DNA from: Nitrososphaerota archaeon
GTDB lineage: Archaea; Thermoproteota; Nitrososphaeria; Nitrososphaerales; Nitrosopumilaceae
Assembly: GCA_002317795.1 (NCBI GenBank)
Contig: NVWC01000012.1
Location: forward strand, 43,845-56,080
Direction of reading: 5' to 3'
Length of the DNA: 12,236 nt
Shown here: in pieces, positions 1-12,236 of the stretch
Layout: every line of letters begins with the position of its first letter
How positions within the stretch are numbered: position 1 is the first letter of the stretch
Made by a program: the position numbers and the translations under genes
Notes under the pieces: model-generated
Seen by the model: the letters and a program-made list of their open reading frames with translations, nothing else
What the model was told of the DNA's origin: nothing
Database searches by the model: none

Positions 1-1
1 T

Positions 2-661
2 AGACGAACCACAAACAAGATCATTGCAGATAGTGAACCTGATGAGAATGAAGATTCACAAATTTACAAAACACGAGATTCACTATACCGATTATTCTTA
101 GATTATGGTGATGAGATTCATGCATTAATTCCCAAAGCAAAACAACTCATCAAAGAACTATCAGGGCGGGAAATGAAATTATGGCTTCCAATAATCACTA
201 TGGCTCTATTTTATGAAATCCATGGAGTAGTAGGAATTACTGATAAAATTACGGCAAAAATGCTTCATACTTCTGAAGATAAGAAAATATCTGACATTGA
301 GGATAACATTGACTTTAAGATTTTACAGATTTTAGAGAAATTTGAGTCAATTCCTACACAATCACGCCTACTTTACAATGCAATTAATGATTCGTTATGG
401 GAACAGTGGAGATTAGAACCACTTGGCGATGCTAAAGTAAAACAATCTCTAGAAAGACTTGGATTTAGGAATAAAAGGGGAAACAAAGGTGTTGTATGGC
501 ACATTATTCCTGAAAAAATCCAAGAAGCCAAAGAACGGATAGGGTTGATAGAACCTACACAAGCTACATTGTCTGAAAGTGATTATAGTAATACAAGTGT
601 AGGAAATGTAGGGAATGTAGGTAGTGTACCCCATGATAGCATGGTGGATGGTGATGGGTAA
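2..661 (+). CDS. 3' part of a probable mobile-element replication protein (DUF3631-like C-terminal region); 5' end lies outside the window
   Basis: The frame is open from position 2 (RRTTNKIIADSEPDE...ELSGREMKLWLPIITMA), so the ATG at 173 is internal. LSGRExxLWxPI and VKQSLERLGFRNKRG recall DUF3631-type primase/helicase-associated Rep proteins. The tail VGNVGNVGSV is typical of such proteins. Family call is from memory. Confidence 0.5.
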   Translation, partial: RRTTNKIIADSEPDENEDSQIYKTRDSLYRLFLDYGDEIHALIPKAKQLIKELSGREMKLWLPIITMALFYEIHGVVGITDKITAKMLHTSEDKKISDIEDNIDFKILQILEKFESIPTQSRLLYNAINDSLWEQWRLEPLGDAKVKQSLERLGFRNKRGNKGVVWHIIPEKIQEAKERIGLIEPTQATLSESDYSNTSVGNVGNVGSVPHDSMVDGDG

Positions 662-666
662 ACGAA

Positions 667-1020
667 ATGACTAAAAGCGGATTGGAAGATATTGGAAGGA
701 ATTATTTCAAAAGAGAATACATATCAGAATTATTACCATTGCAAGACATATCATGTTTCAAACAGTTTTTTTGCAAGTATTTGCAAGAACAGCGACATGT
801 GAAAGATGATGATTTAGATGAAAGTTTTAGGAGATGGTGTAATCAACTAAGTAGTGGAAGAGCACCACTTGAAGTTAGAAGAATTGTAGTGTTTTCACTT
901 TGGATTCATTGTAGTTTAAAACAAATTCACATTGCACGATTGCTTGGTGTAAGTACCAGAACAATCAGAAGAGATCAGCGTGCAATACACCATGAAATTG
1001 GCAAAAGTGGACTCCCATGA
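667..1020 (+). CDS. Helix-turn-helix DNA-binding protein (C-terminal HTH)
   Basis: LKQIHIARLLGVSTRTIRRD is a canonical HTH. It starts 5 bp after the upstream stop, consistent with an operon. Confidence 0.75.
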   Translation: MTKSGLEDIGRNYFKREYISELLPLQDISCFKQFFCKYLQEQRHVKDDDLDESFRRWCNQLSSGRAPLEVRRIVVFSLWIHCSLKQIHIARLLGVSTRTIRRDQRAIHHEIGKSGLP

Positions 1021-1240: not shown

Positions 1241-1400
1241 TTATTTGATGTATTTACGTAACGTCTCATTCAAAACACTAGAGAATCTTATTGACTTGTT
1301 TGTGTTTTGAATCTCTTTTACTTGAATATGCCTTATTTTTTTTGTCTAAATCATCATCTAGTATGATGGTGATACGTTTTGCTTTGCCCGATTTAATCAA
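1241..1400 (-). pseudogene. Frameshifted small ribbon-helix-helix-like protein (thaumarchaeal KRITIxxDDDLDKK family)
   Basis: TTG start at 1400 gives MIKSGKAKRITIILDDDLDKK. After removing one base from the A8 tract (T-run 1336-1343) it continues IRHIQVKEIQNTNKSIRFSSVLNETLRKYIK*. Span is 160 nt (3n+1). Not in the ORF track. Confidence 0.7.
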
Positions 1401-1620
1401 TATATGTCATGTTTTGTTTACGTCTAGATTTATTTCTTAGCCTTGTTTTACAACAAGGACATGTAACTTTGTTTGTAAAGAAAAACAGTGAACATAGAGT
1501 ACAATATTTCTGACCAGTATCATATCGAAAATTGTTAGGCAAAGATACTGTTTGTTTCATCTTCTCAGTAATTGCCTCTTTTTTGTATCTTTCACAAATA
1601 CCCGTACAAACCTGTGCCAT
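1393..1620 (-). CDS. Small Cys-rich putative metal-binding protein, copy 1
   Basis: CxGxC...RYxxGQKxCxxC...CPCCKTRLR motif shared with 2545..2763 and 5771..5962. Confidence 0.85.
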   Translation of the reverse strand: MAQVCTGICERYKKEAITEKMKQTVSLPNNFRYDTGQKYCTLCSLFFFTNKVTCPCCKTRLRNKSRRKQNMTYID

Positions 1621-1885: not shown

Positions 1886-1912
1886 TTAGGATATATTTTT
1901 TGAATTAAACCT

Positions 1913-2395
1913 TCATACAACAGCCTTGTCCGTACGGGATTTGCCGGTTTCAACATAATGTTTTAAATCTTTTAGAGATATCTTCATGATTTTACCCATC
2001 TTGGATTTCATCATAAAACCCATCAATAGATTAAATGGGAACATTATTTCCATTTTAAAATCTAGAATTACTTTGGTTTGGTTATCTTCAAGGGATACTA
2101 CATTCCAAGTGTTTTTCAAATCTTTGACAAAAAATGGCATTTTCTCAACTTTTATATCAAAAGAAAGTTTTTTGTTCGTTTCATCATAATGTGTGATTGT
2201 CTCATCAACTTTACCGATATCTGTCATACATACACGACCAGAACATGGTGCTCCATCAAGTGGCGTGTTGTCATTTTTAACTTTGATAGAACTAATCATA
2301 CTTAGCCATTTATCGGCATTGCCAAATCCCTGACCTACTATATTCCATGTTTTCTCAGCTGATGCATTAATAATAATTTTATTTATAATTTCCAA
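1913..2395 (-). CDS. SRPBCC/START-like (polyketide cyclase/dehydrase type) ligand-binding protein
   Basis: N-terminal IIINASAEKTWNIVG..F...KW, central RVC...ETITHYDE, C-terminal helix LKDLKHYVETG. TTG start. Confidence 0.85.
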   Translation of the reverse strand: MEIINKIIINASAEKTWNIVGQGFGNADKWLSMISSIKVKNDNTPLDGAPCSGRVCMTDIGKVDETITHYDETNKKLSFDIKVEKMPFFVKDLKNTWNVVSLEDNQTKVILDFKMEIMFPFNLLMGFMMKSKMGKIMKISLKDLKHYVETGKSRTDKAVV

Positions 2396-2430
2396 TAAAC
2401 TTACTTCCTTTTTATATCTAAAAAAAATTA

Positions 2431-2483
2431 TATTTAAATTAGATAGTAACTATAGGGTTAGCAGATAACAAAATGTAAGTTAC
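2431..2483 (-). promoter_or_regulatory. Duplicated promoter/operator block, copy 2, between divergent SRPBCC and Cys-rich genes
   Basis: Near-identical to 1642..1695. It contains TAAC-N6-GTTA (2447-2460) and a TATA-like TTTAAATA on the minus strand. Confidence 0.65.
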
Positions 2484-2544
2484 TATGGTTTTGTTATTGG
2501 GAAATTTCTTAAATAAAATAATAAGTAGAAAAATTTGACAAGTT

Positions 2545-2763
2545 TTGGCTCAAGTATGTAAAGGATTATGTGAACGCTACAAAAAAGAATTAATTACTTC
2601 AAAATTGCGGCAAGCTGCAACTACACTTACAGGCAATTTGAGATATGGTGCAGGGCAAAAATGGTGTACCATATGTTCTCAGTTTTTCTTTACAGATAAT
2701 ATTTTGTGCTCTTGTTGTAAGACTCGTCTTCGATCTAAAACAAGATCAAAAAGGCGTGTATAG
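2545..2763 (+). CDS. Small Cys-rich putative metal-binding protein, copy 2
   Basis: MAQVCKGLCERYKKE...RYGAGQKWCTIC...CSCCKTRLR. Closest paralogue of copy 1. Confidence 0.85.
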   Translation: MAQVCKGLCERYKKELITSKLRQAATTLTGNLRYGAGQKWCTICSQFFFTDNILCSCCKTRLRSKTRSKRRV

Positions 2764-3130
2764 TAAATGTTTATGATGTTTATGGATATTTCAATCTAAA
2801 TTCAAAGAAAGAGAATTGAATTAATCGTTTTGTAATCCATGATAGTATTACAGATAAATTTTTGTAATTTAGATACATATGATGAATGTTGTAATAAAAT
2901 ATCACATCTAATTTTATGAATTTTCCAATAATAAAACATGATCTAGAATAAACCTACACAAGAAAATAAAATTTCAATGCTCTACTCACTACATAAATTT
3001 TTGACCTGTTTTGTACAACATATAATATCTAAAAATCTATGAAATTAAAAAACGTAACCCGATTGAAAATAACTTTTAGATTCGTAACCTATGTCCTTTT
3101 ATTTAGCTCGTCATATCTAAAAATAGGAAA

Positions 3131-3673
3131 ATGACATTTATCAAAACAATTCCAAAAGAAGAGGCACAATCGCCACTAAAGGAACTATACCAAGAAATCG
3201 AAGATGGGTTTGGTATGAAAAAAGTTCCAAATGCTTTTATTTCCTCAAGCATTGATCCTGAGATTACAAGATGGGTTTGGCAGGGAGCAAAAACCATCAT
3301 GTTTCGTGATTCTAGCATAGATATGCAATTAAAAGAGACCATTGCACTTGTTGTCTCAAAGAATAACGCATGCTCATATTGTGTTGGGGGTCATAACATG
3401 ATGCTAAAGTCTATGGGATACGATTCAAAAAAAATCGAAGAATTAAACAACGACTACAAATCATCAAGTCTTTCTGAAAAAGAAAAGGCAGTACTTGATT
3501 TTTCATTGAAGGTAACAAACGAATCATACAAAATTACTGAAAAAGATCATGAGAATCTAAAGAAATATGGTATGACTGAACAGCAAATTTTAGAAGTAAT
3601 TTCAGTAGCAAGTTTGTTTAACTTTATCAATCGATTTGTTGATGCCCTTGGTACAGACCTTGAGATAGTTTAA
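3131..3673 (+). CDS. AhpD/carboxymuconolactone-decarboxylase family peroxidase-related enzyme
   Basis: KETIALVVSKNNACSYCVGGH (E..A..VS..NxCxYC...H) and C-terminal SLFNFINRFVDALG. Confidence 0.9.
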   Translation: MTFIKTIPKEEAQSPLKELYQEIEDGFGMKKVPNAFISSSIDPEITRWVWQGAKTIMFRDSSIDMQLKETIALVVSKNNACSYCVGGHNMMLKSMGYDSKKIEELNNDYKSSSLSEKEKAVLDFSLKVTNESYKITEKDHENLKKYGMTEQQILEVISVASLFNFINRFVDALGTDLEIV

Positions 3674-3676
3674 TGG

Positions 3677-3699
3677 AAAAAGGAGTACCATCCTTTTTT
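3677..3699 (+). terminator. Hairpin plus T-run after the AhpD-like gene
   Basis: AAAAAGGA-gtacca-TCCTTTTT, 3 bp after the stop codon. Confidence 0.55.
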
Positions 3700-3740
3700 A
3701 TTCTAATTTACATTTGATGCGAACTGTAAATTAAAAGTAA

Positions 3741-4043
3741 TCCACACATGATGATGACAAAAAGAAATTAGAGTCACCAGAATTCTTGGCACAAATTCAA
3801 TTAATCGTAGATAGAATTGTTAATGTCGATAGAGTATTGGCACAAACTGCAATTGAGCAAGCAGGAGATAAAAAGTCTGACAAGGAAATAGACAAAGCCA
3901 ACAAAGAGATGGATAAAGCATTTGCTGAACTAGATAAAGAAAAACCAGACGAGGCAATTGATAGATTTGAGAAAGCATGGGAGCATGCACAAAAGGCAAT
4001 GAAACCTGATGATGACGAAGAAGATGAAAACGAAGAAGATTAA
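3741..4043 (+). pseudogene. Probable C-terminal remnant of a larger protein (helical AIDRFEKAWEHAQKA domain plus acidic tail)
   Basis: The frame is open from 3741 (STHDDDKKKLESPEFLAQIQ...), upstream of the TTG at 3786. From memory, this motif usually ends much larger secreted proteins. It could instead be a short intact CDS at 3786..4043. Confidence 0.5.
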
Positions 4044-4552
4044 ACTAGATTTAGATTAGTTTCAAATTTAATTATTTTATGCCTACCTGCGTCCATTTTA
4101 ACTCTAATTTGGTAGTGAGTACCCGTGGGTTGTACTCTTGAAATTAATACAACGTATCTAATTCTCACTTAAAATATGGAAATTAAATGAGTATTCTAAT
4201 TTAATTTTAAATTTTTTAATAAATGCATTGGTATTTGGGTCTAGATTAACGAGTAAATCACTACGGGTCCAAAGGATTTTGTATCTATATTTTTATCCCA
4301 AAAATGATCTGAATCCCTGTTGGAGTCATGCATAACCTTGTTGGAGTGTTAATATGATCTGACAAATCGCCCTCATAGATTCGTTTAATGATTTAGAGAT
4401 TTGAACCAATGGTAATTCCCCTTAAGAGAATCAAAGATTAGAGCATTAAACCAATTAAGCAAAGCTCACACAGAGAGTTAACTGCAATCATTTTACTTAT
4501 AGTTGGACTAGCAGTACCATCTAAATCAAAATCCACTTTCAAAGAAAAATCT

Positions 4553-4741
4553 TTGACTTGCAAGTATTGTAACTTTATTGCAATAACTGAGCATGAACTA
4601 CTCAAACACAACTCTGAAAAACATTTGGATAAATCACCATACGTATGTGAGCATTGTGATTTTATTGGAATAACTGAGGAAATTCTATGGAATCATTACA
4701 ATGATATCCATCCAGATAAGAAAAAGTGGAAATGGAATTGA
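4553..4741 (+). CDS. Tandem C2H2 zinc-finger protein (possibly 5'-truncated)
   Basis: Two CxxC-x12-H-x4-H units (CKYC...HNSEKH; CEHC...HYNDIH). The frame is open upstream to 4442 and encodes the hydrophobic stretch TAIILLIVGLAVP. Confidence 0.75.
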   Translation: MTCKYCNFIAITEHELLKHNSEKHLDKSPYVCEHCDFIGITEEILWNHYNDIHPDKKKWKWN

Positions 4742-4813
4742 ATTTGGAATGGTTTTCTGACATAATACAAAAATCGTTAACATTTTATTAAATTCCAAAA
4801 AAAAAAATGTAAA

Positions 4814-5053
4814 TTGATGAAAACAGTAATAATCATTGCAATATTACTCAGTATTTCAATTAGTATAGTGTTAGCAGTTTCTATTCCCGATTTCTCAGAT
4901 TTAGAAGGATTGCAAAATGCAATTGATGAATGTACCAATACAATTGACAATATAGGACCATCTAGTCGTGATTTAGAAAGTTGTTTGGATGATGCCTATA
5001 ATCAATATGGAAATATAGAACAAAAACAAGAGTGGTTTGATGATGAGCACTGA
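4814..5053 (+). CDS. Small secreted or membrane-anchored acidic protein with a Cys pair
   Basis: N-terminal hydrophobic helix (VIIIAILLSISISIVLAVSI), acidic domain, two Cys. Confidence 0.7.
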   Translation: MMKTVIIIAILLSISISIVLAVSIPDFSDLEGLQNAIDECTNTIDNIGPSSRDLESCLDDAYNQYGNIEQKQEWFDDEH

Positions 5054-5082
5054 GTACATTTTTGAATTCGAGTATTTTGATA

Positions 5083-5289
5083 TCATATTTTTGTAACATT
5101 AACAAATTTTTCTTTAAATTTAGTATATCGTGAAGATTTTCTTAATCTTTGATTACAACATGGACAGAATACTCCATCATATTCAATGAAAATATTACAT
5201 GAATTATATTTTTTTGACCGATATCATACTGTCATCCATATTTTGGTTTTTTTTGCACTATGATTTTGACATACATCATTACATTTCAT
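5083..5289 (-). pseudogene. Decayed fourth copy of the Cys-rich family
   Basis: MKCNDVCQNHSAKK...(shifted frame QYDIGQK)...YNSCNIFIEYDGVFCPCCNQRLRKSSR..KI*. It has an internal TGA, compensating indels in two A-runs, and Tyr at a conserved Cys position. Confidence 0.8.
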
Positions 5290-5415
5290 TATCTACAAAA
5301 ATAATATCTTCGTTTTATTAAAAATAATTCTATTTTACATTTATAAAATGATAGAATTATAATTGTCTAAAAAAATTCAATAAGATTCAATAGTATGTTT
5401 GTAATATTTTTCCAC

Positions 5416-5514
5416 ATGTCTAAACCTAAACAAATTGCAGCATGGATTGGAATTATTGGTGGTATGATTGGTTTCTTTTTCTTTTCAATAGAGATGGCAG
5501 AGTTTATGCGATAA
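5416..5514 (+). CDS. Putative 32-aa single-pass membrane microprotein
   Basis: MSKPKQIAAWIGIIGGMIGFFFFSIEMAEFMR*: basic N-terminus plus a Gly-rich hydrophobic helix. An alternative in-frame ATG lies at 5395. GC is higher than the flanks. Confidence 0.5.
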   Translation: MSKPKQIAAWIGIIGGMIGFFFFSIEMAEFMR

Positions 5515-5770
5515 TACTAAAAATTATCTTGTAATTATATATAATTAAAAAAATAATAATTCAAATTGAAAAGAAATTTAATTTCAAGAAAACATTCTTT
5601 TCTTTCTACATTAATGAAAAAGTTATGGTTACAATTTAATTTCATACCTATTTGTGTTCATTTCTAACCCCAAAAATGGTGGATGATTCTGCATGGATTC
5701 TAAATTATATCTTTTTTGTTTTCAAACAACTACTAGTCCTCTAAAGATTTGACATCTGAGTGTGAAATTT

Positions 5771-5962
5771 CTAGGTTCTCACTCTATTTCGATTTTTTGG
5801 TTTTGATCTTAATCTTGTTTTACAACAAGGACAACTTATTTCGGTAGTGGAAAAAAATTGCGCACATAACGAACATCGTTTTTGACCTAATTTGTACCGT
5901 AAACCATTTCTTGTTGAAGTTACTTTTAGACGTTCACATAACCCATTACACATTTGCACCAT
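5771..5962 (-). CDS. Small Cys-rich putative metal-binding protein, copy 3
   Basis: CNGLCER...RYKLGQKRCSLC...CPCCKTRLR. It starts 2 bp after the stop of 5965..6384. Confidence 0.85.
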   Translation of the reverse strand: MVQMCNGLCERLKVTSTRNGLRYKLGQKRCSLCAQFFSTTEISCPCCKTRLRSKPKNRNRVRT

Positions 5963-5964
5963 GT

Positions 5965-6384
5965 CTAAGTCTCAGATTCAAAGAATTTTAAAGCACATAC
6001 ATCAGATCCAATTTGTTCTACAGTAGATGTATGTTTAGCTGAGATCAATATCACATGATCATGTAGGGGAATTGTTATCATCAAAACATTACTCCTGTTT
6101 GTTGTGATGTAATTTATTGTACCTAAAGTATCATCGAAATCCTTGCGCATTGAAATTTCAAGTGTCATTTGCATGTAGAGTTTTCTTCTTTCTTCATCAG
6201 TTTCAATTAAATCAACACATTTACTAAATCCTCCAGCTATTAGATTTCCCATATTGTTTATTACACCAACAAAACGGATCTCATCATTACTAAAAAGTTT
6301 CTGACATTTATTTTCTAATTGTAGATATACATTAACATCTAGTGTTGACTTTAAATTTATTTTAAAAGTTAATTGTTTTTGCAT
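5965..6384 (-). CDS. Thaumarchaeal roadblock/profilin-like protein (DUF6659-like)
   Basis: IRFVGVINNMGNLIAGG...MRKDFDDTLGTINY signature of an expanded Nitrososphaerota family. The true start is uncertain. Confidence 0.75.
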   Translation of the reverse strand: MQKQLTFKINLKSTLDVNVYLQLENKCQKLFSNDEIRFVGVINNMGNLIAGGFSKCVDLIETDEERRKLYMQMTLEISMRKDFDDTLGTINYITTNRSNVLMITIPLHDHVILISAKHTSTVEQIGSDVCALKFFESET

Positions 6385-6400: not shown

Positions 6401-6443
6401 ACAAATCAGAAAAAAAGGAAATTTTTGGGGAAATCTGATTTGT
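6401..6443 (-). terminator. Perfect 10-bp inverted repeat (hairpin) with a U7 run
   Basis: ACAAATCAGA (6401-6410) pairs with TCTGATTTGT (6434-6443). It begins 3 bp after the micro-ORF stop. Confidence 0.6.
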
Positions 6444-6446
6444 TAA

Positions 6447-6479
6447 CTATACTTGTTTTATTACCTCCTTTGTCTTCAT
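6447..6479 (-). CDS. Putative 10-aa leader peptide/micro-ORF MKTKEVIKQV (or an sRNA)
   Basis: The ATG lies 21 nt below a promoter that is 32/33 identical to the CBS gene promoter. An in-frame ATG at 6485 would give 12 aa. Confidence 0.4.
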   Translation of the reverse strand: MKTKEVIKQV

Positions 6480-6495
6480 GAACATACTATCATTT

Positions 6496-6537
6496 TGTAA
6501 TAGATATAGTGGTAGCAATACAGTGTAACACAATGCA
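6496..6537 (-). promoter_or_regulatory. Regulon promoter A: TGTATTGCTAC-N3-TATATCTA
   Basis: GTAGCAATACA at 6512-6522 and TATA-like box at 6501-6508. 6496-6528 matches 7031-7063 at 32/33. Confidence 0.8.
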
Positions 6538-6613
6538 AAGTACATCTGTTCATCCCTCATTACAAAAATCAATTATATGATAAAGATATTTTTGACCTGT
6601 TAAATAGCATAAA

Positions 6614-7012
6614 TTATTTTGCAAGTTGGTTTACCAGATCAGTGGATGTGATGATGCCAATAATTTTATCATTATTTGACACTGCAAGTTTTCTGATTTT
6701 TCCACTGCTCATCATATTTGCGGCAGAAGCGAGAGTAGCGGTATGATTAATTATGACTAAAGGTGAAGACATTATTTTTCCAACTGGAGTGTCTAACGGA
6801 AGATTGTTTGCTGCAATTTTTGTAGCAAAATCTCTATCTGTAATAATGCCAACAGGGTGGTTACTTTCTTTAACAATAATTGCGCCTATCCCCCCACGTT
6901 CCATCATTTTTGCTATTTGAAAAGACGTGGTCATAGGATTAACTGTGATCAGAGATTTACTCATTATGTCCTTGACTAGAATAGAATTCTGATTGAAATC
7001 CTCACGACTCAT
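6614..7012 (-). CDS. CBS-domain pair protein
   Basis: VKDIMSKSLITV, PVGIITDRD, VGKIMSSPLV, IIGIITSTDL. Confidence 0.95.
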   Translation of the reverse strand: MSREDFNQNSILVKDIMSKSLITVNPMTTSFQIAKMMERGGIGAIIVKESNHPVGIITDRDFATKIAANNLPLDTPVGKIMSSPLVIINHTATLASAANMMSSGKIRKLAVSNNDKIIGIITSTDLVNQLAK

Positions 7013-7030
7013 TACAAACTATACTGTTTC

Positions 7031-7067
7031 TGTAATAGATATACTGGTAGCAATACAGTGTAATGCA
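7031..7067 (-). promoter_or_regulatory. Regulon promoter B (CBS gene)
   Basis: GTAGCAATACA at 7047-7057 and TATA-like box at 7036-7043, 23 nt from the ATG at 7012. Confidence 0.8.
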
Positions 7068-7080
7068 GCATAAAATCTAA

Positions 7081-7521
7081 TCAGTCTTTTGTGGTAAGAA
7101 TATGGCAGTGTGCTTTATGATGAATCATATTAATTATAGAATCATAGTGATTTTCTTCAATCAATGAAAGTTTAGGATAATCAACTATTAGTAAATCAAC
7201 ATTATGTTCTTTAACATATTCAATAACCCAATGAGCAATTGACTCAGTTAAAGCAAATTTTGTATTGATTTTAACACCTTCTTTTTGTGCTAACTCTTTC
7301 CATTTTTTCAATTCTTCTTTAATCTTGAAAATTTGTTTCTGCATGATTTTTTTATCTGATTTTGTTTCAAAAAAATAAAATTTAGCAGGTGTCTTGTAAA
7401 CACATTCTATGATGGCTAAGTCACTATCAAATTTTTTTGCTAAGGTAAGCCCCATATCAAAAGATTGTTTTGTATGTGTTGGGGTAATTATGGCAACTGC
7501 AATATTTTTAAACAATTTCAA
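7081..7521 (-). CDS. Universal stress protein (USP) family, divergent
   Basis: FKNIAVAI...LAKKFDSDLAII...IEYVKEHNVDLLIV...IHHKAHCHIL. The canonical G-x2-G-x9-GS ATP motif is absent. Confidence 0.85.
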   Translation of the reverse strand: MKLFKNIAVAIITPTHTKQSFDMGLTLAKKFDSDLAIIECVYKTPAKFYFFETKSDKKIMQKQIFKIKEELKKWKELAQKEGVKINTKFALTESIAHWVIEYVKEHNVDLLIVDYPKLSLIEENHYDSIINMIHHKAHCHILTTKD

Positions 7522-7544
7522 TTAATTTTAACTCCATACAATTC

Positions 7545-7598
7545 TATATGAATTTGTAGCATACAGTGTATTGCATTGTATTGCTACTGGTTTATCCA
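7545..7598. promoter_or_regulatory. Bidirectional regulon promoter C (USP and TFB)
   Basis: Quasi-palindrome GTAGC-ATACAGTGTATTGCATTGTATT-GCTAC (7556-7587), flanked at 3 bp on each side by TATA-like boxes: TTCATATA (minus, 7545-7552) and TTTATCCA (plus, 7591-7598). Confidence 0.8.
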
Positions 7599-7633
7599 TA
7601 AAAAAGAAATTATCAAATGAAGGTTAATTAAAA

Positions 7634-8554
7634 ATGAATACTGTGCAATCTCATAGATGTCCTTCTTGTGGCAAAAATAATATCATTGTAGATGAATTAA
7701 TGGGTGAATCTTTTTGTAAACATTGTGGATTTGTAATTTCTGAACACGAAGTGAATGTAGGTGCTGAATGGCGTTCATTTGCAGGCGATACTAGAAATAG
7801 ATCAAGAGTGGGCGATCACACTTCAATATTGATTCATGACCTGGGTCTTTCAACTGTAATTGGTAAAACAAATCAAGACGTAAAAGGCAAATTTATTTCA
7901 AATGTGATGAAGCATTCTTTTGTTCGACTACGACAAGAAAATAGGAGAATCCAGATAAAGACTTCAACAGACAAAAATTTTGTACAAGCATTTTCAGAGA
8001 TGAATAATTTAAAGATAAAATTAGCTCTATCTGATTCTGTTGTTAAATCTGCAGCATACAGATATCGAAAAGTTATTGAAAAAGGTATGATTAGAGGAAG
8101 ATCAATTAATGCAATGGCTGCAGCATGCATTTATCTAGCATGTAGAAATACAGAAGTCTCAAGGAGTTTAAACGATGTTGCAAAGGCAATCAATGTAAAA
8201 AAAAGAGAATTAGCTAAAAATTACAGAACATTGGTAGTTGAATTTGAGCTTACAGTACCCATACCAAATCCTATAAGTTCAGTATCTAAAATTGCAAATA
8301 TTTTGGGTTTGAGTGAAAAAACAAAAAGAAAGGCAATTGAAATATTAGAAAAAGAAAAAAAGTTGGGAGGATTTGCAGGAAGAGAACCAAATGGATTGGC
8401 AGCTGCGGCATTATATTTAGTTGGAACACATAATGGTGAGGCAAGTTCACAACACCAAATTGCATTAGCAGCTGGTGTAACTGGAGTAACAATTAGAAAT
8501 AGGATTAAAGGGTTGAGTGAATCTACTTTAAAAGAATACATGGGCGTTAAGTAG
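7634..8554 (+). CDS. tfb: Transcription initiation factor IIB (TFB) paralogue
   Basis: Zn ribbon CPSC...CKHCG, B-reader GAEWRSF, HDLGLST, IRGRSI..AAAC, two cyclin repeats, C-terminal GVTGVTIRNR. Confidence 0.97.
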   Translation: MNTVQSHRCPSCGKNNIIVDELMGESFCKHCGFVISEHEVNVGAEWRSFAGDTRNRSRVGDHTSILIHDLGLSTVIGKTNQDVKGKFISNVMKHSFVRLRQENRRIQIKTSTDKNFVQAFSEMNNLKIKLALSDSVVKSAAYRYRKVIEKGMIRGRSINAMAAACIYLACRNTEVSRSLNDVAKAINVKKRELAKNYRTLVVEFELTVPIPNPISSVSKIANILGLSEKTKRKAIEILEKEKKLGGFAGREPNGLAAAALYLVGTHNGEASSQHQIALAAGVTGVTIRNRIKGLSESTLKEYMGVK

Positions 8555-8637
8555 ATGAAAATTACCCCATGATGAATGGTTATCTAAAATCAAGTGTTGG
8601 TATGTGTAGGACCTGGAATTAATTGTGAAACCATAAC

Positions 8638-8913
8638 ATGACATCGGTATTCCTTTTGATAAATTCTAAGAAAGATCATAAACCAGTATTGAAAGAATCC
8701 TTAAGAAAAATTAAAGAATTAATTGAGATTAATGAAACATTTGGCGTATATGATTTTGTTGCAAAAATTGAATCTCCTGATGAGGAAAGACTTCAAGAAA
8801 TTGTTGTGTGTAAAATCAAAAAATTAGATTCAGTAAAATTAGTAATGATTCTCAAAACGATAAAATCTACATCATATTATTCAATAAATAATACCGTTCC
8901 CCAGGATATCTGA
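8638..8913 (+). CDS. Stand-alone Lrp/AsnC ligand-binding (RAM) domain protein
   Basis: VFLLIN...ETFGVYDFVAKIE...KIKKLDSV; no N-terminal HTH. Confidence 0.85.
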   Translation: MTSVFLLINSKKDHKPVLKESLRKIKELIEINETFGVYDFVAKIESPDEERLQEIVVCKIKKLDSVKLVMILKTIKSTSYYSINNTVPQDI

Positions 8914-9030
8914 ACCACTGATACTATCTTGTAATTACATTTGATTTGAGGGAATATTTTTTCTAAATACAGTCCGATTACATTTTGTTTATAATATTAA
9001 ATTGAAATGTGCTCAAAAACTAGTCATTTT

Positions 9031-9501
9031 TTATTCTTTTTTATTACCAACAATCAAAATTGGGCATGTTACACATTCTAAAATTTTTCTAGTATTACTT
9101 CCTAGCTTAAGAAATGTTTTTTGGTCAGAATCCCTTTTTTTTGCCATGACAATCAAATCTACAGGATTATCATTATAAAATCTCAGTATTTCTTCATCTG
9201 GATTCCCATGTGTAATTTTAGTAACTGCATCAACTTTTTCACGTTTACATCGCAATACATGTTTCTCCATTTTTTTAAAAATTATTTTTTTAAAACTACG
9301 CGAAGTATATGTCAATTCATTAATCTTTTCCTTTTGTTCTACATCTGATATGAGATCTAATGGAATGGTTAATGATTCTACAACGTTTAAAATAGTAATT
9401 TTACCATTGCATTCTTTTGCAATATCTATTGCTTTTTCTAATGCAATATCACCTGTTTTTGTACCTGCATGAGGTACTAGAATATTTTTATATTCTAGCA
9501 T
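9031..9501 (-). CDS. Universal stress protein (UspA family)
   Basis: YKNILVPH...ALEKAIDIA...GNPDEEIL...VDLIVMA...LGSNTRKILECVTCPILIV. Confidence 0.93.
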   Translation of the reverse strand: MLEYKNILVPHAGTKTGDIALEKAIDIAKECNGKITILNVVESLTIPLDLISDVEQKEKINELTYTSRSFKKIIFKKMEKHVLRCKREKVDAVTKITHGNPDEEILRFYNDNPVDLIVMAKKRDSDQKTFLKLGSNTRKILECVTCPILIVGNKKE

Positions 9502-9725
9502 GTTTTAGTTACTCCTATAATTGATTTGAAAAGCATACTTGTGGGTTTCGTCATTAATTCATGATTTATCCTATTTTTTGTTAACGGTAGCATCATGTCC
9601 TTTGTATTTGTGGTTTTATAAAATTTATTAAATATGATACCAAATAAAAATAAAAACCGGGCAAACATATTATGTTGAATCGTATTTACAAACACATTTT
9701 GATTCTCACTTTTATTTGATATCAT
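9495..9725 (-). CDS. Hypothetical 76-aa protein upstream of the USP gene
   Basis: No recognisable domain. The ATG is 23 nt below the regulon promoter D TATA-like box, and the end overlaps the USP start by 7 bp. Confidence 0.5.
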   Translation of the reverse strand: MISNKSENQNVFVNTIQHNMFARFLFLFGIIFNKFYKTTNTKDMMLPLTKNRINHELMTKPTSMLFKSIIGVTKTC

Positions 9726-9748
9726 GTAAAGATATATCTAAAAAAATT

Positions 9749-9785
9749 AATAAAAAGTAGTAGCAATACAATGCAATACATCGTA
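9749..9785 (-). promoter_or_regulatory. Regulon promoter D
   Basis: AGTAGCAATACAATGCAATACA (9759-9780) is the exact reverse complement of 7567-7588. TATA-like TTTTTATT at 9749-9756. Confidence 0.8.
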
Positions 9786-9817
9786 AAAGTAGTCTATTTT
9801 TTATTCAAGTTTAATTA

Positions 9818-10369
9818 TTGAATAATGTGAAAGAAAAAATAGAATCAGTTAACAAGACAAAAACTGTATCATTTAGGTTATCATCATCTTTAATTAAAGA
9901 ATTAAAACAAGAGGCTGAAATTGAAAAGATAAATTTCAATGCTTTGATTTCAAAAATATTAGGAAATCACACTCTTTGGGAAAAATATGAACGAAAAGTT
10001 GGATTATTACCCATGACCAAACCTTTTGTTAAATATGCCATTCAAAAACTCACAGACAAGGAAATTATCTATTTAGCAGAAGTTATAGAAAAAGATACAT
10101 TTTCTGACATACTTAATTTCATGAAAGGAGAATACACAGTTGAGGATTTTATAGAAATTCTTCGTACATGGCTTAATGTTGCATGGATGCAACACCATAT
10201 AGAAAAGAATGAAGATACGGTAATCTTTAAAATTCAACATGATTTGGGGAAAAGCTGGTCACTATACGTGAAAACATTGGCTACTGAACTATTCTATGAT
10301 ATTTTAGGAAAAAAATTAGAAGTAATAATTACTAAAACCACCTTAAAACTAGTATTCCCTACAAAATAA
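9818..10369 (+). CDS. Putative transcription regulator: N-terminal ribbon-helix-helix plus a C-terminal alpha/beta (V4R-like) domain
   Basis: KTKTVSFRLSSSLIKELKQEAE...NFNALISKIL is RHH-like. IQHDLGKSWSLY is typical of an expanded thaumarchaeal family. Confidence 0.75.
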   Translation: MNNVKEKIESVNKTKTVSFRLSSSLIKELKQEAEIEKINFNALISKILGNHTLWEKYERKVGLLPMTKPFVKYAIQKLTDKEIIYLAEVIEKDTFSDILNFMKGEYTVEDFIEILRTWLNVAWMQHHIEKNEDTVIFKIQHDLGKSWSLYVKTLATELFYDILGKKLEVIITKTTLKLVFPTK

Positions 10370-10409
10370 TTCTACTAAAACCACCTAAATAATCCTAAAA
10401 TGTTTTTAT

Positions 10410-10793
10410 TTATTCTTGAACTTGCTCTATTTCCCATTGGTCATTTATCCATAATCCCACTACACTGACTTGTAATCTCCAGGATTTTACAATATTAATT
10501 GATTTTCGGATTTGTATTACGTGTATATCTTTTGTTGAAAGATTTGCGGCACAATCATGATGTCCTGAAACCACAACAAGTTTTGAATTATGAGCATTAA
10601 TTGAAATAACAACTTTGGATTTTATTTCGGCAATTCTATCAATATTTTTTTCAGCCATTACTTTATCTGAACCAGGATGTGTGATTACATCTACATAATC
10701 CACAGAGTATTTTTGCTTGATCCAATTTGAAATAAGTAATTGTATTCTACCATCTATACAATTAATGGAAGTAGCAAATTTTGATAAACTCAT
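10410..10793 (-). CDS. Small beta-class-like carbonic anhydrase
   Basis: Zn ligands NCIDGR (CxDxR) and GHHDCAAN (HxxC). Start reassigned to ATG 10793 (MSLSKFATSINC) because the ORF-track start at 10838 lies inside the promoter motif. Confidence 0.8.
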   Translation of the reverse strand: MSLSKFATSINCIDGRIQLLISNWIKQKYSVDYVDVITHPGSDKVMAEKNIDRIAEIKSKVVISINAHNSKLVVVSGHHDCAANLSTKDIHVIQIRKSINIVKSWRLQVSVVGLWINDQWEIEQVQE

Positions 10794-10820
10794 TTTACTT
10801 TGATTATTTTCTTTTTTTAA

Positions 10821-10874
10821 TTTATAAATATATAGCAATACAATGTACTACAATGTATACTGTAAATTCATATA
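10821..10874. promoter_or_regulatory. Bidirectional regulon promoter E (carbonic anhydrase and cupredoxin)
   Basis: ATAGCAATACAATGTACTACAATGTATACTGT (10832-10863), flanked at 3 bp by TTTATAAA (10821-10828) and TTCATATA (10867-10874). Same 54-bp geometry as 7545-7598. Confidence 0.8.
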
Positions 10875-10896
10875 CAATTTGTTTGAATTTAAATCG

Positions 10897-11790
10897 ATGC
10901 AAAGTAGAAAGATTACATCAATTGTATTATTTTTTACAATGATTTCAATAGTTAGTGTAACGCCCAGTATTTTTGCAGATCATCCGATAGTCACAATTGA
11001 AACAGCATTACAATCTGGAATGCCTGGTTGTGAAAACACTGATGATGGTTGCTACATTCCAAGTATTGTCGTAGTTGATGTTGGTGGAGATGTAATCATG
11101 TCAAATACGGATAATGGTTCAATGCATACGTTTACTGCAGGAACTGTTGAAAATTCTGTGGGTATGCCCAGTGGAATATTTGATTCTGGGATTTTATCTC
11201 CTGGTGATTCTTTTAATTATTCTCCAGATGTGGCAGGTGAAATTCCTTACTACTGTATGCTTCATACTTGGATGCAGGGCACAATCATAGTACAGGGAGA
11301 AGAAGAATCACACATTGAAGTAGTGGAAGAAATATCTGAACCTGTAATTATCATGGCAACTGTAGTGGAGCCTGATCAAATGATGGCTGAAATTATTACA
11401 GATGATGGAATTGCAAATGAGGTAATGACTATTGATCTTACACTTACAGATCTTGAAGGAAATGGGATCGAACATATCACATACATTATCAAAGCAGAAC
11501 AAGGATCTAATACTATCCTAGAAGAAGAAGGACACATGCACAAAGGTACTCTAACTAATAATCATGTAACTTCTGCTTTATCTGTAGATGCATCAGATGA
11601 GATGCCTGTAGTGATCACAGTTGAATCTGTAGGATTTGGCCACAATGAACAATATGTAGAATTTTCAGAGGAGATTGCAGTAAAACAAGTTGTCCCAGAA
11701 TTTGGTACAATTGCAATGATGATACTAGCTGTTGCAATCATAAGTATTGTTGCAGTAACTGCAAAATCTAGAGTTGTTCCAAGATTTTAG
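10897..11790 (+). CDS. Surface cupredoxin (plastocyanin-like type-1 copper) protein with a PEFG-CTERM sorting signal
   Basis: Signal peptide (MQSRKITSIVLFF..), PGCE..CYIPS, MHTFT, YYCMLHTWMQG (H/C/H/M ligands), C-terminal VPEFGTIAMMILAVAIISIVAV-TAKSR. Start reassigned to ATG 10897. Confidence 0.92.
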   Translation: MQSRKITSIVLFFTMISIVSVTPSIFADHPIVTIETALQSGMPGCENTDDGCYIPSIVVVDVGGDVIMSNTDNGSMHTFTAGTVENSVGMPSGIFDSGILSPGDSFNYSPDVAGEIPYYCMLHTWMQGTIIVQGEEESHIEVVEEISEPVIIMATVVEPDQMMAEIITDDGIANEVMTIDLTLTDLEGNGIEHITYIIKAEQGSNTILEEEGHMHKGTLTNNHVTSALSVDASDEMPVVITVESVGFGHNEQYVEFSEEIAVKQVVPEFGTIAMMILAVAIISIVAVTAKSRVVPRF

Positions 11791-11921
11791 GTCAGTAGAA
11801 TGACAAGAATAATTTCAGAGTTATCTTGGGGAATTAGACTTGATGAAATATGATTAAACAAATATTCCATAAATAAAATTGATGATTTATTTATCCAAAA
11901 CAATATTATTTTATTGATATA

Positions 11922-12236
11922 ATGTCGCAACAACTCCAAAATAAAGAAAAATGTCCTAGATGTGGAAAACATAATCTAGTCACTGATGGTGTATCTGGAG
12001 AAGTATTTTGTGGAAAATGTGGATTTGTTATTGATGAAAAAATTTCAGATAGTGGTTCTGAAAGAATATTCTTAGATAGTACAGCAAGTAAATCTCGTAC
12101 TGGAGATAGAACATCTCTAACAAGACATGATCAAGGTCTTAGTAGTATAATTAATCCAATCAACAAAGATGCATCAGGAAAGCCATTATCCTCATCCATG
12201 AAAGTATCTCTGAGTCAGCTTAGAAAATTAGATAGT
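11922..12236 (+). CDS. tfb: Second TFB paralogue, 5' part (runs off the window)
   Basis: MSQQLQNKEKCPRCGKHNLVTDGVSGEVFCGKCGFVIDEK...SRTGDRTSLTRHDQGLSSIINPINKDASGKPLSSSMK. Not in the ORF track. Confidence 0.93.
   Translation, partial: MSQQLQNKEKCPRCGKHNLVTDGVSGEVFCGKCGFVIDEKISDSGSERIFLDSTASKSRTGDRTSLTRHDQGLSSIINPINKDASGKPLSSSMKVSLSQLRKLDS

Follow-up and report, generated by a model that had tools for sequence, protein, structure and literature searches.

Within a 12,236-nucleotide stretch of the genome of a Nitrososphaerota archaeon of the family Nitrosopumilaceae (contig NVWC01000012.1, positions 43,845 to 56,080; hereafter, the window), promoters of genes for universal stress proteins (USPs), a CBS-domain protein, a carbonic anhydrase and a divergent paralogue of the transcription factor TFB share a sequence element just upstream of the TATA box. 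What is this element, and which protein reads it? An earlier interpretation of the DNA alone (the sequence-only reading) had placed it at seven promoters, at an invariant three-nucleotide distance from a TATA-like box, and had taken it for a non-canonical B recognition element (BRE) through which one dedicated factor switches a regulon. In oceans and soils, ammonia-oxidising archaea rank among the most abundant microbes, and to our knowledge their gene regulation is almost uncharted. In the part of a 2026 paper available to us, the control of their UspA proteins is described as something that ‘remain[s] largely unknown’ (PMC12974425). Our full-text literature search returned no description of the motif, of the protein family discussed below or of any defined regulator-operator pair in Nitrosopumilaceae.

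We analyzed the window (G000:C7:43845-56080; in our labels, G stands for genome, C for contig and L for locus) together with its source genome, a 1,906,738-bp draft of 37 contigs with 31% G+C, and about 280 relatives, comprising 80 genomes of the genus and 200 of the family. The element is a tandem repeat that travels with the gene of a 180-aa protein encoded at 9827-10369, and we consider it probable, from the sequence comparisons, that it is the operator of this protein, a locally encoded one-component regulator. The sequence-only reading was largely right in what it saw and right in proposing a shared dedicated factor; that factor is most likely a ribbon-helix-helix/V4R-like protein and not a TFB.

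A tandem element at the promoters of one island

The core of the element, the 11-mer TGTATTGCTAC, is found exactly at 6512-6522(-), 7047-7057(-), 7577-7587(+) and 9760-9770(-) of the window and with a single mismatch at 10832-10842(-). Every one of these five copies is followed by three nucleotides (N3) and an A/T-rich 8-mer. The exact 11-mer occurs only six times in the whole genome; four of the occurrences lie within 3.3 kb in the window, and the remaining two (contigs C10 and C15) have no TATA-like box behind them. When up to two mismatches are allowed, the window holds 11 matches versus 4.1 expected, a count reached by 1 of 200 shuffles. The core is the proximal half of a tandem pair, with a related 10-bp unit, TGTnTTrCAy, upstream. 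The full 21-base element has two 9-bp units 10 bp apart, [TGT-N3-ACA]-T-[TGT-N3-GCT]-AC, followed by N3 and then TATA, and its conservation peaks at the TGT, ACA and GCT triplets rather than spanning the entire cassette.

To score sites, we used a 38-column matrix trained on 36 sites of relatives alone, with the loci of the source genome excluded. Scanning the source genome with this matrix gave five matches of at least 20 bits (44.5, 41.7, 36.9, 30.5 and 20.1), all inside the window, and a next best score of 14.5 bits; three simulated second-order Markov genomes had maxima of 12.8, 7.9 and 12.8 bits. The motif is real, far beyond chance, and the regulon is local and portable, with its strong sites confined to one 4.4-kb island of the genome, so that a genome-wide regulon is not supported. 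A DUF6659 paralogue has a further, weak candidate ~40 nt ahead of its TATA box (G000 C6:127-150), which scored 13.9 bits against the simulated maximum of 12.8 and was not counted.

Five of the seven proposed sites are as originally placed (S1, S2, S4, S5 and S6 in Table 1), with the N3 spacing invariant among them. The other two, on the USP1 and cupredoxin sides (S3 and S7), match only with a 1-nt deletion, score nothing and lie opposite the strong TFB and carbonic-anhydrase sites, on the other strand. Of the two divergent intergenic regions, 7516-7605 matches the reverse complement of 10814-10903 at 66 of 90 positions in an ungapped alignment. Because these two bidirectional regions are homologous, S3/S7 and S4/S6 are copies by descent and do not count as independent. 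S1 and S2 are 76% identical over 51 nt. We treat 7545-7598 as a bidirectional control region, with S4 facing the TFB gene and the gapped unit facing USP1.

The distances from the TATA end to the start codon at the seven promoters, recounted as 21, 23, 23, 35, 23, 27 and 22 nt, agree with those first given (21-27 nt, 35 for TFB). Measured to the start codon, the box behind N3 begins at a distance of 29-43 nt, in most cases 30-31. Across 3,228 generic upstream regions, the frequency of TATA-type hexamers is highest from -28 to -32. We read the 8-mer as a TATA box at its usual place. By the same TATA-to-start rule, the carbonic anhydrase likely starts at ATG 10793 and the cupredoxin at ATG 10897. 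The longer open reading frames (ORFs) of both genes would run into the operator.

The canonical archaeal BRE consists of 6-7 purine-rich bp that abut the TATA box on its upstream side. Positions -7 to -1 from TATA, in the window as in the 36 sites of relatives, read CTAC followed by y-A-s, which is not purine-rich. Since the last bases of the element and N3 fill the BRE position without being purine-rich, the sequence can fairly be called a ‘non-canonical BRE region’. Mis-called starts blur the base frequencies in front of the first ATG of long ORFs, and we therefore anchored generic promoters on TATA hexamers; the 142 promoters of the genome aligned in this manner show no strong BRE, so the contrast to the organism's own BRE cannot be sharpened.

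Linkage of the element to one gene

The island as a whole has no synteny in the 80 genus genomes, where its pieces are scattered. Among these pieces, the one with the closest relatives is the gene at 9827-10369, and TGTGTTGCTAC-N3-TATATCTA adjoins it in every genus locus that holds it. Close orthologues (at least 63% identity) are present in 9 of the 80 genus relatives and the strict pattern TGTRTTGCTAYNNNTWYWT in 13. All nine orthologue-bearing genomes have the strict pattern on the same contig, at most 2.2 kb from the gene, versus only 4 of the other 71, in which the matches are single or atypical and none is clustered. Among 200 relatives in the wider family, an orthologue at E ≤ 1e-45 is found in 27 and the strict pattern in 18, with the two side by side in 7 genomes, including G227 with five sites in 4 kb. 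We examined 20 further orthologue loci: 19 contain the element or a variant form of it, e.g., TGTATTACAA-TGTAATGCTAC-tag-TATAAGTG, and the twentieth (L058) only a decayed copy; in these loci, the element usually starts ~10-180 nt past the regulator stop codon and points at the next gene. Across at least nine genera, the 21-bp repeat is kept while flanks, leaders and downstream genes differ.

With the matrix, a site was found in 35 of the 36 loci in which a regular expression had found the protein, a count that is partly by construction, as the matrix derives from these loci; L071 and L072 were missed by the protein expression, yet have sites. As a control, 21 paralogue loci (24-37% identity, 74 kb) were scored and yielded no site, with 2.4 bits as the top score. 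A set of promoters sharing a conserved cis-element implies one dedicated factor, and the retention of this element upstream of related genes in other Nitrosopumilaceae agrees with that part of the earlier proposal.

Protein and element also vary together. The predicted DNA-reading strand QV(C/S)TLRL goes with TGTAATGCTAC (TGTAATGC) in all 11 loci with this strand, T(I/V/N/M)(S/T)(F/L/V/I)R(L/I) strands go with TGT(G/A/C/T)TTGCTAC-type cores, and the T(I/V)(S/T)FRL type goes with TGT(G/A)TTGC.

The candidate regulator

Homologues of the 180-aa protein appear in public records as ‘hypothetical protein’ and occasionally as ‘HicB family antitoxin’; the orthologue in Nitrosarchaeum limnium is Nlim_0950. 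With a profile of 38 orthologues, clusters at 50% identity number 1,246 for E ≤ 1e-3 and 481 for E ≤ 1e-10, almost all with a length of ~180 aa, and the look-alikes in the ESM Atlas are only ‘hypothetical protein’ clusters of Nitrososphaerota.

The AlphaFold model (mean pLDDT 78; helices 20-33 and 37-58) suggests a ribbon-helix-helix domain (about residues 9-57) followed by a V4R/H-NOX/Bet3-like domain (58-180). Residues 9-57 superpose on the DNA-binding domain of CopA_SO with Z 6.8 and a root-mean-square deviation (rmsd) of 0.9 Å over 48 residues; other structural matches are PutA bound to its operator (Z 6.5), NikR (5.8), AmrZ (5.8), SvtR (5.7) and TacA. In model and superposition alike, the N-terminus is the strand-helix-helix module of ~45 residues that defines the ribbon-helix-helix superfamily. 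At E ≤ 1, Pfam finds CopG_antitoxin in 36 and RHH_1 in 14 of the 38 family members.

For residues 58-180, the structural matches over 104-122 residues are Bet3/TRAPP (Z 8.5-7.6), the VirS ligand domain (8.0), H-NOX (7.6-6.4) and the V4R domains of PoxR/DmpR (6.5/6.4), with the CdpR ligand domain as a further full-length match in the range Z 6.4-8.5; the best Foldseek match is H-NOX (E 1.6e-3). The profile returned only two chance-level rows against Protein Data Bank sequences and no sequence-level V4R or H-NOX match; because support at this level is absent, the assignment is probable rather than established. H138 is invariant in this domain and H123 nearly so; H-NOX heme sensors have a proximal histidine and a Y-x-S-x-R heme-propionate motif. 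A title among the references of PMC3729527 reports V4R and Bet3 to be related.

The antitoxin label is very likely wrong. As in type II antitoxins of the CopG/HicB type, the N-terminal 45 residues give weak Pfam CopG_antitoxin and HicB matches; unlike them, the regulator has a 120-residue sensor-like domain, and its operator is found at many unrelated promoters. The neighbors do not suggest a co-transcribed toxin, the 76-aa ORF and USP being divergent and Pro_CA_2 convergent, and no toxin family is among the Pfam matches of the window's ORFs or of the flanks scanned in relatives' loci.

Partial or diverged copies of the gene exist elsewhere in the source genome. G000:C4:9519-9982 (L054 2520-2983) is a 464-bp, 100% identical copy of window 10043-10506, i.e., of the 3' part of the regulator gene and the downstream spacer. 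It encodes the C-terminal 113 residues only, without the DNA-binding domain, and could be a pseudogene fragment, a recent duplication or an assembly repeat. A 24%-identical paralogue (L084 1568-3345; L084 is G000:C5:32500-36500) lies near its own DUF6659 and Zn-ribbon genes, with a TGTGTTAC-containing repeat in the intergenic region before the DUF6659 gene; other regulator paralogues may use related boxes. A rule that each regulator paralogue is paired with a DUF6659 gene was dropped, as it applies to only 1 of the 21 paralogue loci (the one on G000 C5) within the flank examined.

Proposed mechanism and alternative readers

We infer binding of the element by the 180-aa protein, its dimer-of-dimers mode and the direction of control as follows. 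The N-terminal ribbon-helix-helix domain would bind as two dimers to the two 9-bp units, whose centres are 10 bp apart. Members of this superfamily are obligate dimers that place a two-stranded antiparallel beta-ribbon in the major groove. As the units are one helical turn apart, two dimers would fit on one face of the DNA, and dimers on tandem units are the architecture of operators of ribbon-helix-helix proteins. The proximal unit ends 5 bp upstream of TATA, so that bound protein would touch or cover the TFB contact site, and the C-terminal domain would sense a small ligand or the redox state and thereby switch binding. The regulator would control five operator-bearing promoters, namely those of the micro-ORF/DUF6659/Zn-ribbon operon, the CBS gene, the TFB-RAM pair, the 76-aa ORF with USP2, and Pro_CA_2, together with promoters that share the same intergenic regions: those of USP1, the cupredoxin gene and the regulator itself. 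In the last case, 17 nt separate S5 from the regulator gene's TATA box, which follows downstream on the other strand, and both are within the intergenic region 9726-9826. Because the proximal unit is close to TATA and the BRE position is not purine-rich, we favor occlusion or recruitment of TFB. Repression through BRE/TFB occlusion is the mode toward which we lean slightly; activation through recruitment of TFB/TBP to a weak BRE is possible, and the use of both is unlikely.

Several observations weigh against this assignment. The linkage shows that gene and motif travel together, which would be equally expected if the gene were the most conserved target. The relatives are kin, so that the counts overstate independence, and the co-variation of strand and operator may be a single evolutionary event. 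As the matrix sites were picked by pattern in the same relatives' loci, the unbiased tests are the scan of the source genome and the paralogue control only. In G083 (99% complete), one of the four genus relatives with the strict pattern but no close orthologue, a canonical operator with TATATCTA stands directly upstream of the ribosomal protein S26e gene (L048, G083:C52, 3282); this site may be an orphan or a relic. A 169-aa ORF next to it was considered as a diverged regulator and rejected, as it has no similarity to the protein. The regulator's own promoter has no site in most genomes, and autoregulation is therefore not general. As for the protein, the Pfam RHH match of the window's own copy is below threshold (21 versus 28 bits), the Z values of the C-terminal domain are middling and can reflect a common arrangement, and neither V4R nor HNOB is among the Pfam matches of the 38 members at E ≤ 1.

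We considered three other explanations. The one that survives best is that something else binds (the Zn-ribbon protein, the Roadblock-like DUF6659 protein or an unlinked factor) and that the ribbon-helix-helix gene is a mere conserved neighbor or target. In most Nitrosopumilus-type loci, the site is followed first by a Zn-ribbon gene or DUF6659, the basic tail of the Zn-ribbon protein is compatible with nucleic-acid binding, and adjacency alone cannot separate a regulator from a target. However, the motif persists in the loci of genus g36 that we examined, where Pro_CA_2 (identity confirmed for L060) and no DUF6659 or Zn-ribbon gene is directly behind the site. The ribbon-helix-helix gene is the only one common to all systems and has a canonical DNA-binding fold, which the Roadblock fold is not. 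We therefore regard another binder as unlikely.

The second explanation follows the sequence-only reading and makes the element a non-canonical BRE read by the island TFB (7634-8554), which would switch on a set that includes itself. The seven bp formed by the last bases of the element and N3 are indeed where TFB binds, a TFB gene followed by a RAM-domain gene stands behind the site in two genera (the window and G182), a third TFB lies within the G067 cluster, and the generic promoters of this genome show no strong BRE that would define the specificity of TFB. Yet the island TFB has no orthologue above 52% identity in the 80 genus relatives, though nine use the motif, and TFBs at the ~50% level are found in 60 of the 80 regardless of the motif. 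The site-linked TFBs of G182 and the G067 cluster are 44% and 38% identical to the island TFB, less than housekeeping TFBs are; the minimal systems of G003, G019, G023, G058, G068 and G071 have the motif without a linked TFB; and the conserved element, at 21 bp with a 10-bp periodicity, is about three times as long as a BRE. The lack of a close orthologue, the low identity of the site-linked TFBs and the motif genomes without a linked TFB make the TFB an improbable reader. What holds of the original BRE proposal is that the element overlaps the BRE position; the TFB appears to be a target, and the TFB-RAM pair a recurrent one (window and G182), with the ribbon-helix-helix protein as the likely reader.

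Finally, a recent promoter-cassette duplication in a mobile island, with no dedicated regulator and with the conserved bases as a strong core-promoter variant, would account for the inverted copies and the S1/S2 similarity described above, the lack of synteny and the truncated regulator copy on contig C4, but is very improbable, given that the repeat persists in at least nine genera despite different surroundings and peaks on the triplets, that the pattern is rare without a regulator orthologue and that it was not seen at the 142 generic promoters.

Genes of the island and targets in relatives

The gene calls of the sequence-only reading agree with our Pfam and NCBIfam scans of the window, and the features are collected in Table 1.

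Table 1. Putative operators, genes and leader features, in coordinates of the window
Feature	Position	Strand	Score or remark
Operator S1: TGTGTTACAC + TGTATTGCTAC	6512-6532; N3 6509-6511; TATA box TATATCTA 6501-6508	-	44.5 bits; orthologous site kept in relatives
Operator S2, driving CBS-pair gene	7047-7067; TATA 7036-7043	-	36.9 bits
Degenerate gapped unit S3, USP1 side	7556-7571; TATA 7545-7552	-	No matrix score; homologous to cupredoxin side
Operator S4, driving TFB gene	7567-7587; TATA 7591-7598	+	41.7 bits
Operator S5, driving 76-aa ORF + USP2	9760-9780; TATA 9749-9756	-	30.5 bits; same layout in G227
Operator S6, driving Pro_CA_2 gene	10832-10852; TATA 10821-10828	-	20.1 bits
Weak gapped unit S7, cupredoxin side	10844-10874; TATA 10867-10874	+	No matrix score; homologous to USP1 side of 7545-7598
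63-aa four-cysteine Zn-ribbon protein, basic tail; second gene of S1 operon	5771-5962	-	65% identity to 67-aa gene behind site in G023
DUF6659 protein	5965-6384	-	Pfam DUF6659, E 1e-12
Leader hairpin ACAAATCAGA ... T-run ... TCTGATTTGT, between micro-ORF and DUF6659 start	6401-6443	-	RNAalifold 9-bp stem
Leaderless 10-codon micro-ORF, 21 nt past S1 TATA box; contains GGAGG	6447-6479	-	Aligned leaders
CBS-pair gene	6614-7012	-	Pfam CBS, E 9e-26
USP1, universal stress protein; TTG start 23 nt past its TATA box	7081-7521	-	Pfam Usp, E 7e-8
TFB paralogue, divergent	7634-8554	+	Pfam TFIIB and Zn_Ribbon_TF
Stand-alone RAM (Lrp/AsnC ligand-binding) domain protein, downstream of TFB gene	8638-8913	+	Pfam AsnC_trans_reg, E 5e-7
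USP2	9031-9501	-	Pfam Usp, E 2e-21
76-aa ORF	9495-9725	-	Upstream of USP2, driven by S5
Candidate regulator, 180 aa, GTG start	9827-10369; ORF 9818/9827-10369; TATA 9798-9805	+	Weak CopG/ribbon-helix-helix match
Pro_CA_2 (carbonic anhydrase) gene	ORF 10410-10838, likely 10410-10793	-	Pfam Pro_CA_2, E 1e-46
Cupredoxin gene with PEFG-CTERM tail	ORF 10843-11790, likely 10897-11790	+	Blue-copper domain matches, E 2e-7 and 3e-4

The USP, CBS, Pro_CA_2 and TFB genes of the sequence-only reading's gene set recur in relatives, TFB together with a RAM-domain gene; the reading had overlooked the gene at 9827-10369. DUF6659 is the most frequent target there, often followed by a Zn-ribbon gene or by a USP, a 66-aa ORF and a CitMHS permease (G067, G074, G076, G117, G227, G272, G262, G068). 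Behind other sites are a Na/H exchanger (G182), CBS proteins (G227, G182, G148), Pro_CA_2 (G104 and the g36 loci examined, the L060 protein being 55% identical to that of the window) and, in some genomes, the regulator gene itself. In G159, a 55%-identical Pro_CA_2 orthologue stands directly behind regulator and operator. G227:C45 repeats the layout of the window almost module for module, with the addition of a CitMHS permease absent from the window.

The DUF6659 model (pLDDT 74.9; helices 17-30 and 63-81; strands 36-43, 48-53, 93-97, 100-107 and 110-116) has the alpha-beta-beta-alpha-beta-beta-beta order of a Roadblock/LC7/MglB fold. Its 114 Foldseek matches at E ≤ 1e-3 are led by archaeal Roadblock, p14/MP1 and MglB proteins (best match an archaeal Roadblock protein, E 6e-7, TM-score 0.66-0.77), which points to the same fold. 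The Zn-ribbon family is the sole target in G003, G019 and G023. Paralogous four-cysteine Zn-ribbon proteins of 63-86 aa with a basic ...CCKTRLRSK... tail are encoded at window 1393-1620(-), 2545-2763(+) and 5771-5962(-) and at L054 1956-2216, one of them being the second gene kept in the regulated operon.

Behind the regulator-adjacent site, 13 loci have a micro-ORF of 9-12 codons. In the 13 aligned leaders (window 6401-6479(-), L002, L004, L008, L044-L046, L051-L053, L055, L057 and L062), its ATG and GGAGG are invariant, with GGAGG in another reading frame in G076. In the hairpin that follows, 5 of 9 pairs show compensatory changes and the loops are mostly C-rich; there is a T-run, with the main start codon ~20 nt on. 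No Rfam family fits the leader or the promoters at E ≤ 1, where only three chance-level rows were returned. Judging from the alignment, the leader could be an attenuator or a small RNA.

At the window end (11922-12236, +), a second TFB gene begins with its zinc-ribbon N-terminus and has no operator upstream. In the cupredoxin gene, the ~103 nt at the 3' end that encode the PEFG-CTERM tail (11689-11791) are 92-97% identical in DNA to pieces in many genus genomes, where the rest of the gene is ~70% identical; this is unusually strong nucleotide conservation for a sorting signal. The left half of the window (1-1020 and 1900-5700) contains unannotated ORFs, a DeoR-like helix-turn-helix ORF, a C2H2-like ORF and long A/T-rich gaps. 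This content, together with the lack of synteny in relatives, suggests that the regulon sits in a variable genomic island, perhaps beside a mobile element.

Discussion

The proposed regulator and its operator would be a familiar kind of system. Arc, Mnt, CopG, MetJ and omega are ribbon-helix-helix repressors with tandem operator units, and the present protein resembles them and NikR in its N-terminal fold and in short repeated units about one helical turn apart that overlap the core promoter. NikR likewise has a C-terminal putative sensor domain behind its ribbon-helix-helix domain; this domain is ACT-like and metal-binding in NikR and probably V4R/H-NOX/Bet3-like here, and the promoters here are of the archaeal TATA/BRE type. 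Ptr2 and TFB-RF1 are archaeal activators that bind just upstream of the BRE. As at their promoters, the site here adjoins BRE/TATA where the BRE region is not purine-rich, but they belong to other protein families (Lrp-like and others), and activation is one of two possible modes here.

The archaeal MsvR of methanogens, which combines a DNA-binding and a V4R domain and is redox-sensitive, has been proposed to act as a repressor that covers the BRE immediately before TATA (box B); its boxes lie upstream of TATA and abut it, and under its control are a stress operon and, partly, its own gene (PMC3729527, in the portion available to us). Judging by the model, the regulator here would likewise be an archaeal one-component protein with a DNA-binding domain fused to a putative V4R-type sensor and with sites by TATA/BRE. 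However, MsvR has a winged-helix/helix-turn-helix rather than a ribbon-helix-helix domain, and the regulator has no Pfam V4R match. The three conserved V4R cysteines of MsvR, as given in that portion, are not seen here, with no Cys among the invariant columns of the regulator alignment. The operator consists of tandem TGT-N3-ACA-type units, not MsvR boxes, and the hosts are Nitrososphaerota, not methanogens.

The sequence-only reading had compared the gene set to the mycobacterial DosR regulon and proposed a response to energy or oxygen limitation. DosR is a LuxR-type response regulator with a palindromic box and two heme kinases above it. The likeness lies in a USP-rich stress set, one dedicated factor and a shared promoter element of roughly 20 bp, but nothing homologous to the DosR system is present here. 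Hypoxia raises UspA, CBS and Lrp/AsnC-ligand-domain genes in sponge-associated Nitrosopumilus relatives (available part of bioRxiv 10.1101/2023.02.27.530229), and UspA-CBS operons are up at 32 °C in N. maritimus (excerpted text of PMC12974425). By analogy, the hypoxia/energy reading would agree only loosely with these published inductions of USP and CBS genes by hypoxia and heat.

In a more ambitious and decidedly speculative version, which we think rather unlikely as a whole, the protein would be the first tractable member of a large Nitrososphaerota-specific ribbon-helix-helix family with a V4R/H-NOX-like sensor (the 481 clusters above), sensing a gas, heme, redox or hydrophobic ligand relevant to ammonia oxidation. 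The stress island would then be under two-tier control, at the BRE/TATA junction, including a private TFB feed-forward arm, and through the translated leaderless micro-ORF, with the co-varying hairpin/T-run acting as attenuator or small RNA before the Roadblock/Zn-ribbon operon.

Taken on its own, the sequence evidence most likely describes a family of uncharacterized regulators whose operator is clear and whose stress regulon is portable. It offers a testable triple: a 180-aa protein, a 21-bp operator with defined critical triplets, and a conserved target set of USP, CBS, Pro_CA_2, transporters, the Roadblock-like protein and a TFB paralogue. For a family with hundreds of members, it would correct the labels ‘antitoxin’ and ‘hypothetical protein’. 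A TFB paralogue that appears as the regulated output of a specific regulator also bears on how these archaea may deploy their many TFB paralogues.

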